NCBI GenBank assembly: GCA_044868145.1
Contig: JBIOWE010000006.1
Coordinates: 151,707-215,706, forward strand
Source of the DNA: Patescibacteria group bacterium
GTDB taxonomy: Bacteria > Patescibacteriota > Patescibacteriia > UBA10025 > JBIOWE01
Direction of reading: 5' to 3'
DNA: 64,000 nt
Shown here: piece after piece, positions 16,628-21,185 of the stretch
Numbering within the stretch: the stretch's first letter is position 1
How the letters are laid out: each line of letters begins with the position of its first letter
Position numbers and translations under genes: made by a program
The notes under the pieces: model-generated
Told to the model about the DNA's origin: nothing
The model's input: the letters and a program-made list of their open reading frames with translations, nothing else
Database searches by the model: none

Positions 16628-16848
16628 AAAGGATCGTCTGGATTATTATTTTTATTGTTCTCGCCGGTCTTTTGTATTACGGCTGGCGGAATCGTTCAGC
16701 TTTGCCAGTTATCGGCACAAACACGGACGTCAATGCGAAGAAAAGCCGAAACTTGGATTATTATTGCAATTTGCCGAATATTCCCAGTGATTATCAAAAG
16801 GATTGCGATAATTTCAAAAACGGATTTAACAGCGGACTTATACGATGA
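16624..16848 (+). CDS. Hypothetical membrane-anchored protein (74 aa)
   Basis: ATGA overlap with the upstream ORF. Its stop overlaps the xseA start. Confidence 0.4.
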   Translation: MKRIVWIIIFIVLAGLLYYGWRNRSALPVIGTNTDVNAKKSRNLDYYCNLPNIPSDYQKDCDNFKNGFNSGLIR

Positions 16849-18002
16849 AAGTTTATACCGTCTCTGAATTCAATAGCGCCTTGAAGTCCTACCTGGAAGA
16901 GGGGATGGCCAGCGTAGCAATTCAGGGCGAAGTCACTAGTTATCGAAAAGCCAAAGAAAAGCTTATCTATTTTGAGCTGAAGGATGACAAGGCGCGCGTG
17001 CTTTGTTTTATGCTCACGTGGGAGCTCAAAACGATTCTCGAGGATGGCATGGAAATCCGCGTGCACGGAAAGCCATCAATCTTCGTCGGCACAGGCGGTT
17101 TTCACGTCCGCGTGAAAGAAATCGAGCTGGTTGGCGCCGGCGCGCTACGAAAAGCGCTTGAACAACTTAAGCAAAAGCTTGAAAAAGAAGGGTTGTTCGC
17201 TCCAGAGCGCAAGCGTCCTTTGCCCCGTTTTCCATCGCATATTGGTTTGATCACCTCGCCGGACGCCGCCGCGTATACGGACGTCCTACGCATATTGAAA
17301 AATCGTTGGGCAGGCGTGACCGTGCACTTCTACCCGGTTTCTGTGCAAGGGTTCGGCGCCATCAAGGACATCATAGGCGCATTCAAATACTTCAATCGTA
17401 CGCACGAGGTAGAAGTGATTATTCTTACGCGCGGCGGCGGCAGTCTGGAAGATTTGCAAGCGTTCAACGCGGAAGACGTGGCCCGCGCTGTATTCGCGTC
17501 AACAATTCCCGTGGTATCCGGCGTTGGCCATGAACGCGACGTAACGATTGCCGACCTTGTTGCTGACCAGCGCGCTTCGACCCCTTCCAACGCTGCGGAA
17601 CGCGTTGTGCCGGATAAACATGAGGTACAAGCCGAACTCAGCTACATGGCTGAACGCCTGGAAGAACTTCTGCGACAGGAACTAGAAAGTAAGAACTTAT
17701 TTATTTCCACATTCGTTAGCAGATTTGAAGACTTGATACGACACAAACACACAGCTATAATAGAGAAAATTCTTCGCCTCAAGCAATCAGGCACGTATCT
17801 CATTCAGACGTGGCAAAATCGCATTCAAGAACATGAGCGTTTGCTCAAAACCCTTTCCCCGCAAGCAACGCTCGATCGGGGCTATAGCATTACGCGTAGG
17901 ATAGGGGATAAGAAGATTATCGCTAGCCCAACAGAGGTAAAGCCCGGCGAACGTATTCGAACGCGCTTGAAAAAAGGTGAGATTGAATCGAAGGTACAAT
18001 AA
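16845..18002 (+). CDS. xseA: Exodeoxyribonuclease VII large subunit
   Basis: OB-fold N-terminus plus catalytic core. Followed by xseB. Confidence 0.85.
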   Translation: MKVYTVSEFNSALKSYLEEGMASVAIQGEVTSYRKAKEKLIYFELKDDKARVLCFMLTWELKTILEDGMEIRVHGKPSIFVGTGGFHVRVKEIELVGAGALRKALEQLKQKLEKEGLFAPERKRPLPRFPSHIGLITSPDAAAYTDVLRILKNRWAGVTVHFYPVSVQGFGAIKDIIGAFKYFNRTHEVEVIILTRGGGSLEDLQAFNAEDVARAVFASTIPVVSGVGHERDVTIADLVADQRASTPSNAAERVVPDKHEVQAELSYMAERLEELLRQELESKNLFISTFVSRFEDLIRHKHTAIIEKILRLKQSGTYLIQTWQNRIQEHERLLKTLSPQATLDRGYSITRRIGDKKIIASPTEVKPGERIRTRLKKGEIESKVQ

Positions 18003-18004
18003 CT

Positions 18005-18238
18005 ATGGCCACAAAACAAAAGAAGAGCTTTGCAGAATCATTCGCAGAATTGGAAAAAATAACGGAGAAATTCGAGTCCGGCAATATTGACCTAGACCAA
18101 AGCTTGCAGGATTTTGAGCGCGGCTTGGCGTTAGCCAGTGAATTAAAGAAGCGTTTACAAGACGTGGAGAATAAAATCCGTACCATCAAAGATAAATTTG
18201 ATGATTTAGAGGACAAAGAGCCAGAAACCGAAGAATAG
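18005..18238 (+). CDS. xseB: Exodeoxyribonuclease VII small subunit
   Basis: 77-aa helical protein with an ELEKI..LE..DLDQSL pattern. Confidence 0.85.
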   Translation: MATKQKKSFAESFAELEKITEKFESGNIDLDQSLQDFERGLALASELKKRLQDVENKIRTIKDKFDDLEDKEPETEE

Positions 18239-18243
18239 CCGTA

Positions 18244-18339
18244 CCCCACACCATTTTTACAGTTTATGTTTCCTAACCCGTAACAGTTTACCACTTTTAC
18301 TATTTTGTTGTTTGAATGTCCTCTAAAAATGGTGTGGGG
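18244..18339. repeat. Long-range 16-bp perfect inverted repeat (CCCCACACCATTTTTA ... TAAAAATGGTGTGGGG) enclosing about 64 nt
   Basis: Read directly. Sits immediately before a promoter. Confidence 0.55.
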
Positions 18340-18368
18340 TTGACAGCAGTATTGTTATAGTATATACT
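18340..18368 (+). promoter_or_regulatory. Promoter TTGACA-17-TATACT followed by TATATACTA direct repeats
   Basis: Consensus hexamers. AGTATATACTA is repeated twice downstream. Confidence 0.55.
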
Positions 18369-18421
18369 AGGTATATATTAAGTATGAATGAAGTATATAC
18401 TAAGTATTAACGTTTTCTCCT

Positions 18422-18592
18422 ATGTACGACAATCGTTTGCGCAGAAAGGTGTTCCCGATCGGAAAGTACAGTTATGCGCTTACTGTGCCTAAGGATTTAT
18501 TGAAATTACTGGGTTGGCAGCCGGGGGAAGCGCTCGAAGTGGTGCCGGATTTGGGGAAAAAGCGAATTATTGTAAAGCGGTATAAGTTTTAG
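18422..18592 (+). CDS. AbrB/MazE/SpoVT-type (swapped-hairpin) DNA-binding protein, 56 aa; below the ORF-track cutoff
   Basis: MYDNRLRRKVFPIGKYSYALTVPKDLLKLLGWQPGEALEVVPDLGKKRIIVKRYKF matches the AbrB/MazE fold pattern. No SD. Confidence 0.55.
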   Translation: MYDNRLRRKVFPIGKYSYALTVPKDLLKLLGWQPGEALEVVPDLGKKRIIVKRYKF

Positions 18593-18747
18593 GAGACCCT
18601 GAATCAAGTTCAGGGTGACAATTAAAGACGGAATGCTCTTTTGCTGTCATGCTGAACCCTGTCCTGACGAATGTCAGGATTGTTTCAGCATCTCTATAGG
18701 TGAGGTCCCTCGCTCCGTCGCGTTTATATACGCGACTTCGCTCGGGA

Positions 18748-18793
18748 CGAAGGTCAAGTTTTCTTCATAAAGACTTGACCTTCGGTTTTTCTT
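18748..18793 (+). terminator. Rho-independent terminator (11-bp stem CGAAGGTCAAG / CTTGACCTTCG plus T-run) overlapping the next -35
   Basis: Read directly. Confidence 0.6.
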
Positions 18794-18803
18794 CGGCTAT
18801 ACT
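18775..18803 (+). promoter_or_regulatory. Promoter TTGACC-17-TATACT, 8 nt before the ATG at 18812
   Basis: Hexamers and spacing read directly. Confidence 0.5.
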
Positions 18804-18811
18804 AAAGAAGT

Positions 18812-19063
18812 ATGGAAGCCGAGGTTGTGGATATATTCGCTTCGTTTACGAAAGAAGGGCCAAGGCCTCAATTGATACGGCATAAGGGGCATAGTTATCG
18901 TATTAACCGCGTGAATTTGCATTATACGGCCAGGGAAGGGGGCAGGGTGGTCCATTATTTCGCGTGTTCCGACGATGCCAATTATTTCCAGTTGCGATTC
19001 GATCCGGTGGAATTACGCTGGCAATTGATGCAAATCGAGGATTACACGGAGCCAACTTCATGA
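18812..19063 (+). CDS. Hypothetical 83-aa protein, translationally coupled (ATGA) to dinB
   Basis: Its stop overlaps the dinB ATG at 19060. No recognisable motif. Confidence 0.45.
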   Translation: MEAEVVDIFASFTKEGPRPQLIRHKGHSYRINRVNLHYTAREGGRVVHYFACSDDANYFQLRFDPVELRWQLMQIEDYTEPTS

Positions 19064-20277
19064 ACCGTGTCGTTCTCCACCTGGACATGAACTCCTATTT
19101 TGCCTCAGTAGAACAGCAGGCAAATCCGTTTTTGCGGGGCAAGCCGGTTGGGGTCTGCGCGACTATGACAAAAAACGGCTGTATTATCGCGTCGTCGAAA
19201 GAGGCAAAAGCCGTTGGTATTAAGACGGGTTGTCGCGTGCAGGACGCGCTTTTTTTATATCCAAATGTCGCGCTTGTGCCGGTTGATCCGCCGAAATATC
19301 GTTCCACAACGCAAAAGATTTTTTCCATTATTGCGGAGTACACCGAAGACGTCGAGCATTATTCCATTGATGAAGCGTTTTTGAATCTCACGGGTTTCGT
19401 TGAGACGCTTGCGGAAGCAAAGGAGAAGGCTATGGAAATCCAACGGCGCGTCAAAGAGGAGGTGGGCGATTGGCTCACGTGTTCCATGGGTATAGCGCCG
19501 ACGCGCTGGCTTGCGAAGTTCGGGTCCGACACCGCGCCCAAAGGTGGAATTGTTGTGCTCAACCGTCAAAACCTTCTGGCGTATCTCAAGGGACGTGAAT
19601 TGACCGAGGCGTGGGGGATTGCGCATGGTTTGGAACGCCGGTTGCACGTGCTCGGGATTTGGACGCTTGACGAGCTGGCGCAATATCCGGTCGCGAATCT
19701 GATGCGCGTATTTGGTATTCGTGGATATGAGATGTGGGCCAACGTGAACGGTATTGAGTTCTCGCGGGTTGAGGAGCGACGCATCCCAAAGTCCATCGGC
19801 CATTCCCATGTGTTGCGTCGGCGCGTCCGTGACATTCAATTTCATCGCGCGGTGTTCATGCGCCTGTGCGAACGGACAGGTCGGCGCTTGCGCAACATGG
19901 GCCTGGAAGCCGGTGGCGTATTCGTACAGGTTGGCAGCGACATGGGCGGCGATGGCGGCGATAAGAAGTTAGCCGAGACTATTACCGGTAGCGATGAGAT
20001 TTTCCATCATACTTGGCAGATGATCGAGCGAACGGTTAGTATAGTTGTGCCGACGTTTTTTGCGGTGGGCGTGTTCCGTTTGCAGCCGATTTCCCAACAG
20101 CAGCGACTCTGGCGCAAGCCAAAGCGCCTTCATGTGTATAAAGCGCTGGATGAGATTAACGATAAGTTTGGCGAGGAAACAATTGTGTGGGGTTCGCTTC
20201 TTGGTCTAGAAAAGCATCATGCTCCGGATAGAATCGGGTTTCGGAAGACAGTAGGCTTGGATTGGCCATTGACATAA
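19060..20277 (+). CDS. dinB: DNA polymerase IV (Y-family)
   Basis: VLHLDMNSYFASVE N-terminus (catalytic Asp), Y-family palm and finger motifs. The track start is an upstream alternative codon. Confidence 0.85.
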   Translation: MNRVVLHLDMNSYFASVEQQANPFLRGKPVGVCATMTKNGCIIASSKEAKAVGIKTGCRVQDALFLYPNVALVPVDPPKYRSTTQKIFSIIAEYTEDVEHYSIDEAFLNLTGFVETLAEAKEKAMEIQRRVKEEVGDWLTCSMGIAPTRWLAKFGSDTAPKGGIVVLNRQNLLAYLKGRELTEAWGIAHGLERRLHVLGIWTLDELAQYPVANLMRVFGIRGYEMWANVNGIEFSRVEERRIPKSIGHSHVLRRRVRDIQFHRAVFMRLCERTGRRLRNMGLEAGGVFVQVGSDMGGDGGDKKLAETITGSDEIFHHTWQMIERTVSIVVPTFFAVGVFRLQPISQQQRLWRKPKRLHVYKALDEINDKFGEETIVWGSLLGLEKHHAPDRIGFRKTVGLDWPLT

Positions 20278-20434
20278 TGTGTATCACGTTTACCTTCAGT
20301 TGTCATTTCGAACCTCGACCCTGAGTTTATCGAAGGGGCGGGGTGAGAAATCTCCAAGCTATGAGGTACTGGCCAGGAGATTTCTCGTCCCTCGACAAGC
20401 TCGGGACTCGAAATGACAGCCAGGTTGACCTGCT

Positions 20435-21028: not shown

Positions 21029-21089
21029 GTCCTTCACGAACAAAAAAACCCAGAGCAGGCGGCTCTGCCCCGTATAAAATTTTACGGGG

Positions 21090-21148
21090 CTCTGCCTGCG
21101 ATAGGTTTTCCTGGTTCACGCCCATCGCACCCACGGCGGGGCGCGCTG
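21090..21148. repeat. Intergenic repeat element, copy 2 (see 11917-11975)
   Basis: Conserved 17-nt and 24-nt ends, preceded by two short hairpins. Confidence 0.6.
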
Positions 21149-21156
21149 GGTCTTCA

Positions 21157-21185
21157 TTGCAATCATGCAATTTTTTCGCTACAAT
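21157..21185 (+). promoter_or_regulatory. Promoter TTGCAA-17-TACAAT, 6 nt before the ATG at 21192
   Basis: Lies inside the 5' end of the track ORF 21165, arguing for the later start. Confidence 0.5.

Follow-up and report, generated by a model that had tools for sequence, protein, structure and literature searches.

A stand-alone AbrB/SpoVT-type protein of 56 residues and a putative autorepression array beside a dinB operon in a Patescibacteria genome

AbrB, the transition-state regulator of Bacillus subtilis, represses its own promoter and binds degenerate sites that have no clear consensus, and for type II antitoxins of the AbrB fold autoregulation relies on repeats or palindromes in the promoter of the antitoxin gene itself. 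Homodimerisation is common to all members of this swapped-hairpin AbrB/SpoVT fold, and proteins that carry it are able to bind DNA with loose specificity. Eraso et al. reportedly found in 2014 that MraZ represses its own operon via short direct repeats about one helical turn apart. Here we analyse a 64-kb stretch from the genome of a Patescibacteria group bacterium that is close to Kerfeldbacteria (contig JBIOWE010000006.1; the whole stretch is called the window) and, within it, the gene of a 56-residue protein that we call AbrB56. The gene lies between xseAB, which encode the two subunits of exonuclease VII, and an operon of a small open reading frame, ORF83, and dinB (Table 1). A preliminary description of the locus, made from the DNA sequence alone, had pointed to this gene, to the repeats and hairpins around it, and to a possible role in the response to DNA damage.

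Our reading, to which we give a probability of about 0.7, is that AbrB56 is a stand-alone, single-domain AbrB/SpoVT transcription factor that represses its own gene through an array of 11-bp units, and that it forms a unit of its own beside a dinB operon that is probably under LexA control. The locus was compared with three orthologous loci (L081, L093 and L094), with 12 independent loci that encode minimal AbrB proteins of the same family, and with 80 other Patescibacteria dinB loci, 54 of which contain a homologue of ORF83.

The AbrB56 gene and its product

The sequence of AbrB56 scores 28.6 bits against the Pfam family PF04014 over residues 17-55, above the curated cutoff of 24.7, and 22.2 bits against TIGR01439, under the cutoff of 28.3. 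A profile search of the PDB with AbrB56 matches SpoVT, C56 and AbrB. The AlphaFold2 (AF2) model of the monomer, built on 75 family proteins, has a predicted local distance difference test score (pLDDT) of 88 and displays a beta-beta-alpha-beta-beta topology, with strands at residues 10-13, 17-20, 38-43 and 48-53 and a helix at residues 24-30. In a Foldseek search of the PDB the model aligns best with 2mrn, 1ub4, 1yfb and 2w1t (template modelling scores of 0.66-0.73), and its top 29 matches are all MazE, AbrB, SpoVT, VapB, Sso7c4, C56 or C68. Together these results bear out the swapped-hairpin AbrB/MazE/SpoVT fold that the preliminary description had suggested for the product.

Comparison of AbrB56 with its L081 orthologue (68% identical) gives a proportion of nonsynonymous differences (pN) of 0.21 and of synonymous differences (pS) of 0.80, at which synonymous sites are saturated. 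This combination of saturated pS and low pN indicates a real gene under purifying selection. The orthologues in L081, L093 and L094 are 68-70% identical to AbrB56. In word-indexed homologue searches the 56-aa and the 83-aa protein, each used singly, retrieved nothing but themselves. Exhaustive phmmer then brought up a small number of AbrB56 relatives of 50-60 aa, and the profile built from these recovers 91 proteins of 40-104 aa, mostly from Patescibacteria and most of them 47-62 aa long. The ORF was found just where it had been described, and it does fall below the 60-aa cutoff applied then, but it is not unannotated: NCBI and Logan both already list the identical 56-aa protein, along with a precomputed PF04014 match. 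The gene is thus genuine and encodes an AbrB/SpoVT-type DNA-binding protein. PADLOC returned no match, and hence no tie to a known defence system.

The best Pfam family of AbrB56 is named MazE_antitoxin, MazE and VapB structures are among its top fold matches, and a Doc-partner model and a phage antitoxin PHROG match it weakly. On these grounds AbrB56 could be an orphan antitoxin left over from a type II module, with the toxin lost or hidden in the hairpin region downstream, where a 51-aa ORF (18615-18770) is found. Against this, the C-terminus of AbrB56 is only three residues past the last strand in the AF2 model, which leaves no tail or extension for toxin binding, and the small size typical of the family is in line with this. 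As had been remarked for this locus at the outset, there is no toxin partner: no recognisable toxin family was found beside AbrB56 or its kin in the window, in the 12 independent contexts or in the three orthologue loci. Neither the 51-aa ORF nor a 61-aa ORF of the hairpin region has a family match, and the hairpins in which the 51-aa ORF lies are missing from the orthologous loci. Strong purifying selection and a conserved operator also speak against decay. The orphan-antitoxin explanation is largely refuted, and we consider it highly improbable. The "MazE antitoxin" labels on Patescibacteria proteins of ~50-60 aa are probably wrong, and these proteins are more likely to be stand-alone regulators.

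The promoter and the 11-bp array

The promoter proposed earlier for AbrB56 is present and matches the consensus at nearly all positions (Table 1). TTGAC-N18-TATACT occurs seven times in the window against 0.49 expected, a 14-fold enrichment. Only three perfect copies exist in the 64 kb, at 18340, 18775 and 20425, spread over at most 2.1 kb; they drive AbrB56, ORF83-dinB and dcd (dCTP deaminase), respectively. The enrichment and the three perfect copies make these credible promoters for this organism.

Two direct repeats had been noted after this promoter. They are present and exceed chance: in the whole 64 kb, AGTATATACTA is confined to 18359-18369 and 18392-18402, a count reached in 0 of 100 shuffles. 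They prove to be the two best units of a tandem array with a period of 11 and 4.5 copies, as detected by Tandem Repeats Finder (TRF). The first unit overlaps the -10 hexamer, and the others are in the 5' untranslated region of ~50 nt. The core of the array, AGTATATACT, is itself a 10-bp palindrome; all other AGTATATACT sites in the window contain at least one mismatch and occur at chance frequency, the best of them (45685) inside a coding region.

This layout is retained in all three orthologues. Upstream of the genes in L081, L093 and L094, TTGACA and TATACT are again 17 bp apart, and five 11-bp units, with cores that read TATATACT or TATAGACT, extend to the start codon. The promoter and array blocks are non-coding and yet conserved, though the synonymous sites of the orthologous genes are saturated. 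Analogous phased arrays lie upstream of 11 of the 12 family members, and the distant relatives have their own phased repeats of 11-12 bp directly before the start codon (Table 1). When the first nine family loci were compared with 126 control upstream regions, seven of them exceeded the 95th percentile of the controls in periodicity. The type of repeat tracks the similarity of the proteins: P0033 and P0034, which are 85% identical, both have CGTAATTACG, while the repeat upstream of P0046 is ATTACGTAAT and those of P0021 and P0011 are palindromes with a TATATA core. Such a pattern is expected of a repressor that co-evolves with its own operator. The conserved arrangement of promoter and array, together with the analogous repeats in distant relatives, supports the autoregulation that the preliminary description had suggested from operator-like repeats.

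We therefore propose the following mechanism from sequence and fold, and infer each of its steps: the binding of DNA, the repression, the state of oligomerisation and any targets other than the promoter of the gene itself. AbrB56 would form homodimers, and these would occupy the five 11-bp units AGTATATACTA next to one another, all on the same face of the DNA. Bound AbrB56 would occlude the -10 box and block RNA polymerase or early elongation, resulting in negative autoregulation.

Several observations weigh against this reading. The array could serve another factor, given the loose specificity of the AbrB fold. The AbrB56 gene has no recognisable Shine-Dalgarno sequence, as is also the case for the neighbouring genes that were inspected. 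The searches for further operator copies, like the search for lexA described below, covered the 64 kb of the window. Finally, an AbrB gene adjoins ORF83 in four of four known close relatives, with dinB next in the three whose contigs extend that far, which hints at a tie for which a self-contained unit does not account.

AbrB56 might instead be a small chromatin-like or general DNA-binding protein, similar to the archaeal Sso7c4 or to the "histone-like" proteins of the AbrB fold, and with no dedicated operator. It has the same minimal single-domain size, a basic N-terminus, and fold matches to Sso7c4 (2l66), C68 (3o27), C56 (7xi6) and 5itj/5itm. What argues for a repressor is the sequence-specific array on its own promoter, which is conserved in the orthologues and changes with the protein in paralogous lineages, and the overlap of this operator with a strong consensus promoter. 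We judge the chromatin-like alternative to be quite unlikely. We see next to no chance that the ORF is spurious and that the repeats and hairpins around it are low-complexity or AT-rich sequence devoid of function. The ORF is short, its lack of a Shine-Dalgarno sequence would fit, and the genome is rich in hairpin spacers, but the Pfam match, the fold, purifying selection, 91 family members and the conserved promoter and array blocks refute this explanation.

The flanks of AbrB56 and the ORF83-dinB operon

Table 1 Features of the AbrB56 locus (positions in the window) and upstream repeats of distant family members (by locus).
Feature	Position or locus	Strand	Evidence or details
xseA, exonuclease VII large subunit	16845..18002	+	PF02601 E = 1e-84
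xseB, exonuclease VII small subunit	18005..18238	+	PF02609 E = 8e-16
Long-range inverted repeat, ends at -35 box	18243..18340	.	arms 18243-18262 and 18321-18340; 58-nt spacer
AbrB56 promoter, TTGACA-17-TATACT	18340..18368	+	11/12 positions matched; conserved in L081, L093, L094
Tandem array of 11-bp units, consensus AGTATATACTA, putative autorepression operator	18359..18407	+	TRF, orthologue conservation
AbrB56, 56-aa AbrB/MazE/SpoVT-fold protein, single DNA-binding domain	18422..18592	+	Pfam, AF2, Foldseek, pN/pS
Stem-loop stack	18596..18748	+	stems ~18596-18616, 18617-18648 (weak), 18649-18691, 18705-18748
Intrinsic terminator of AbrB unit	18748..18784	+	15-bp stem, then GTTTTTCTTC
ORF83-dinB promoter, TTGACC-17-TATACT	18775..18803	+	promoter pattern; -10 ends 8 nt before ATG
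Direct repeat CTTCGG-TTTTT-CTTCGG, inferred LexA box	18780..18797	+	position weight matrix, 27.8 bits, top site in window
ORF83, small protein of a DUF6504-like family	18812..19063	+	homologues upstream of dinB in 54/80 loci
dinB, Y-family DNA polymerase IV	19060..20277	+	PF00817 E = 1e-42, PF11799
Distant-relative repeat	L083		ATAGTAAGGAC x3
Distant-relative repeat	L085, L086		CGTAATTACG x3
Distant-relative repeat	L087, L091		ATTACGTAAT x2
Distant-relative repeat	L088, L092		AGTATATACT/ATATATA
Distant-relative repeat	L089		RYATATRY x5
Distant-relative repeat	L090		AAAATCTATATT x2

The long-range inverted repeat directly upstream of the AbrB56 promoter contains the perfect 16-mer noted previously (18244-18259 / 18324-18339), which can be extended to 20 nt at 95% identity. 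A census of the whole 64 kb (12-nt exact seed, within 150 nt) found only seven inverted repeats of this type. RNA of the region 18236-18345 folds at -31 kcal/mol (z = -4.4). Inverted repeats are also found at the AbrB promoters of L094 (2818-2907, arms CCGCCCAATTT/AAATTGGGTGG, 68-nt spacer) and L093 (2290-2357, arms TGTCAACCCC/GGGGTTGACA, 48-nt spacer). In the three genomes the repeat, with arms of 10-17 bp and a spacer of 48-68 nt, ends at or overlaps the AbrB -35 box, and its arms are unrelated in sequence among the three: the structure is kept and the sequence is not. Probably it either closes the xseAB unit, as a 3' hairpin or terminator, or acts as an insulator for the AbrB promoter.

The spacer on the other side of the gene (18590-18811, ~220 nt) folds at -92.5 kcal/mol (z = -7.7). 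Four consecutive stem-loops had been reported for it, the last of them a terminator; we find three clear stem-loops and a weak one, and then a terminator whose 3' arm (18770-18784) does contain the -35 box of the next promoter, TTGACC (18775-18780), as had been observed. The density of hairpins is not special to this spot: by the same stability cutoff, 18 stretches of the window match or exceed it (20290-20415, 21040-21165 and 16 others). The palindromic element GTCATTTCGA...TCGAAATGAC after dinB is an example of the very stable intergenic hairpins of this genome. The other intergenic hairpins of the window share no sequence family with those at 18596-18748, and the stack is missing from the orthologous spacers of L093 and L094, which have a single terminator in ~130 nt. 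Rfam searches (the whole window at gathering thresholds, and 18150-18900 at E <= 10) returned nothing credible for the inverted repeat or the hairpins. When the spacers on either side of the gene were compared with the window and the loci by BLAST, no further copies of the arms or hairpins turned up, which rules out a family of miniature inverted-repeat transposable elements (MITE) or repetitive extragenic palindromes (REP); the segment with the dinB promoter and its box was the only one conserved. We treat the hairpin stack as a feature that appears specific to this genome and ordinary for its spacers.

By the ATGA at 19060-19063, in which ORF83 overlaps the start of dinB, ORF83 is translationally coupled to dinB. 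Its family consists of all-beta proteins of ~75 aa that resemble DUF6504 (a domain of unknown function) and are often translationally coupled to dinB. ORF83 of the window has no match to PF20114 at E <= 1; 22 of 33 aligned homologues do match it, the best with E = 5e-6. No structural analogue of the family was found, and a literature search found no paper that mentions DUF6504. The spacing of the -10 box and the ORF83 start codon suggests that the mRNA is probably leaderless. The gap between -10 and ATG is 5-8 nt in the window, L011, L013, L014, L016 and L057, and the leaders of other relatives are ~13-50 nt long.

The promoter of this operon contains TTCGG-N6-TTCGG (18781-18796) between its -35 and -10 boxes. 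Of the 54 dinB loci with an ORF83 homologue, 20 have the same box ahead of that gene, and none of the 20 has an AbrB gene; the box is also present in L081, L093 and L094, and it precedes lexA itself in L034, L055, L056 and L058. The loci with the box in the ORF83-dinB promoter are L002-L008, L011, L013, L014, L016-L022, L051, L056, L057, L072, L081, L093 and L094. It is conserved as DNA across loci whose proteins are merely 30-60% identical. With the position weight matrix (PWM), which rarely scores shuffled sequences above 16 bits, 27 sites of at least 17 bits were detected in ~600 kb of loci, and nearly all of them are directly before ORF83 or lexA in promoter orientation. Placement ahead of lexA as well as ahead of a translesion polymerase gene is characteristic of LexA operators. 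Since the box precedes both lexA and the dinB operon, and since lexA directly adjoins ORF83-dinB in 29 of the 80 loci (upstream and co-directional, or divergent), LexA would control dinB here, and TTCGG-N6-TTCGG most likely serves this Patescibacteria clade as LexA operator.

The second- and third-best PWM matches in the window flank xseAB. One (18227-18244, reverse strand, 19.2 bits) overlaps the xseB stop codon and the other (16734-16751, reverse strand, 18.0 bits) is inside a small coding ORF. Neither of these weak LexA-like sites is conserved in L093 or L094, and they are probably chance matches or lineage-specific. The Falkowbacteria-like loci L024-L026, L029, L031-L033, L035 and L037 have a different conserved element, TTGTCAAGTATGTTCAAGnnACTTGACA, which is located ~100-150 nt ahead of ORF83 and separates this gene from a divergent, more distant LexA-like (S24) gene. 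A diverged LexA of this clade probably uses the element as its operator.

The arrangement of these genes bears on the suggestion that AbrB56 belongs to a DNA-damage module in place of lexA. The neighbours named in that suggestion are correct by Pfam. If AbrB56 were a regulator of DNA damage or DNA metabolism tied to ORF83-dinB, either as a second layer on LexA or as its substitute, this would account for several observations. At this locus the AbrB gene takes the position, immediately before ORF83-dinB, where other Patescibacteria have lexA, and tblastn found no LexA homologue in the window. The AbrB-ORF83 order seen in the four close relatives extends to L081, where AbrB-(phosphoribosyltransferase)-ORF83 is kept and the upstream flank is rearranged. 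At six of the 12 independent family loci an immediate neighbour is a repair or replication gene, a crude count that has no proper background. These neighbours are xseB/dinB, Exo_endo_phos, RecG, RecO, DciA and RmuC (window, L086-L089 and L091).

Other evidence separates AbrB56 from dinB. The box found before lexA in relatives is preserved as a perfect copy in the dinB promoter, and a motif search of the window did not find the AbrB repeat motif in this promoter. The AbrB56 promoter, in turn, lacks the clade LexA box, the only nearby site being the weak, non-conserved one at the xseB stop codon. A terminator divides AbrB56 from ORF83-dinB, both here and in the orthologous loci. Among the 80 other dinB loci, neither tblastn nor phmmer detected a relative of AbrB56, and the family profile found none within +/-4 kb of dinB. 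By Pfam, AbrB56 has neither an S24 peptidase domain nor an N-terminal winged-helix domain, and so no sensor or cleavage domain of the kind found in LexA. L093 and L094 share the gene order xseAB-AbrB-ORF83-dinB with the window and have xseA orthologues (72% identical) in the same position; the four syntenic genomes are thus related, and the adjacency may be inherited rather than selected. We consider a role of AbrB56 as DNA-damage regulator very unlikely, and replacement of lexA by AbrB56 is not supported; the conserved adjacency leaves a small probability for a link restricted to this lineage. A broader proposal is that minimal AbrB proteins are an autoregulated class attached to repair and replication genes, in which AbrB56, in the lexA slot, would add a LexA-independent layer on DUF6504-dinB; we hold this to be unlikely as well, if somewhat less so. 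Under the reading that we prefer, the AbrB56 gene would be a separate transcription unit, bounded by the large hairpin upstream and the terminator downstream, and ORF83-dinB would be a separate operon with its own promoter and putative LexA operator.

Comparison with known regulators

Taken alone, AbrB56 would be one more small autoregulator of the AbrB fold, and the value of its description lies mostly in annotation clean-up. Because each protein comes with a clearly phased operator array, the family offers easy targets for electrophoretic mobility shift assays (EMSA), and the array could serve as a compact repressor-operator pair. Two by-products may weigh more for the biology of the candidate phyla radiation (CPR): the sharply defined candidate SOS operator TTCGG-N6-TTCGG, in Kerfeldbacteria-like lineages, and, across Patescibacteria, the coupling of a DUF6504-type small protein with dinB and in many cases also with lexA. 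As Patescibacteria are unculturable, such assignments of cis and trans elements are among the few handles on their regulation.

Direct-repeat LexA motifs have been documented, such as GTTC-N7-GTTC (PMC8565304). It is the dinB box, not AbrB56, that resembles this alphaproteobacterial operator: the box is a direct repeat with 11-bp spacing that contains nTTC-N7-nTTC, and it differs in its extended half-site, TTCGG.

AbrB56 itself has the same swapped-hairpin beta-beta-alpha-beta-beta domain as the N-terminal domains of B. subtilis AbrB and of SpoVT. Whereas AbrB (94 aa) and SpoVT (178 aa) have additional C-terminal oligomerisation or GAF domains, AbrB56 is the bare domain, and in contrast to the degenerate sites of AbrB its putative operator is a regular 11-bp tandem array. 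With the type II antitoxins (MazE, VapB, PrlF and Doc partners) it shares the N-terminal fold and the PF04014 family, but it has no toxin-neutralising tail and no adjacent recognisable toxin gene. Sso7c4, C68 (pSSVx) and C56 (pSSVi), which came up in the sequence-profile search as well as in the fold search, are likewise stand-alone single SpoVT/AbrB domains of 56-68 aa; in the Foldseek alignments AbrB56 is 21-25% identical to C56 and C68 and 14% identical to Sso7c4. These proteins are archaeal or plasmid-borne, whereas the AbrB56 family is chromosomal in Patescibacteria and has the phased operator array. The regulation that we propose for AbrB56 resembles that of MraZ at the dcw promoter, as both would involve autorepression by a member of the AbrB superfamily on phased direct repeats. 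No membership of AbrB56 in MraZ was found at the sequence level, and MraZ differs in its two fused domains, its large oligomers, its universal linkage to mraW/fts genes and its TGGGN repeats, where those of AbrB56 are AGTATATACTA.

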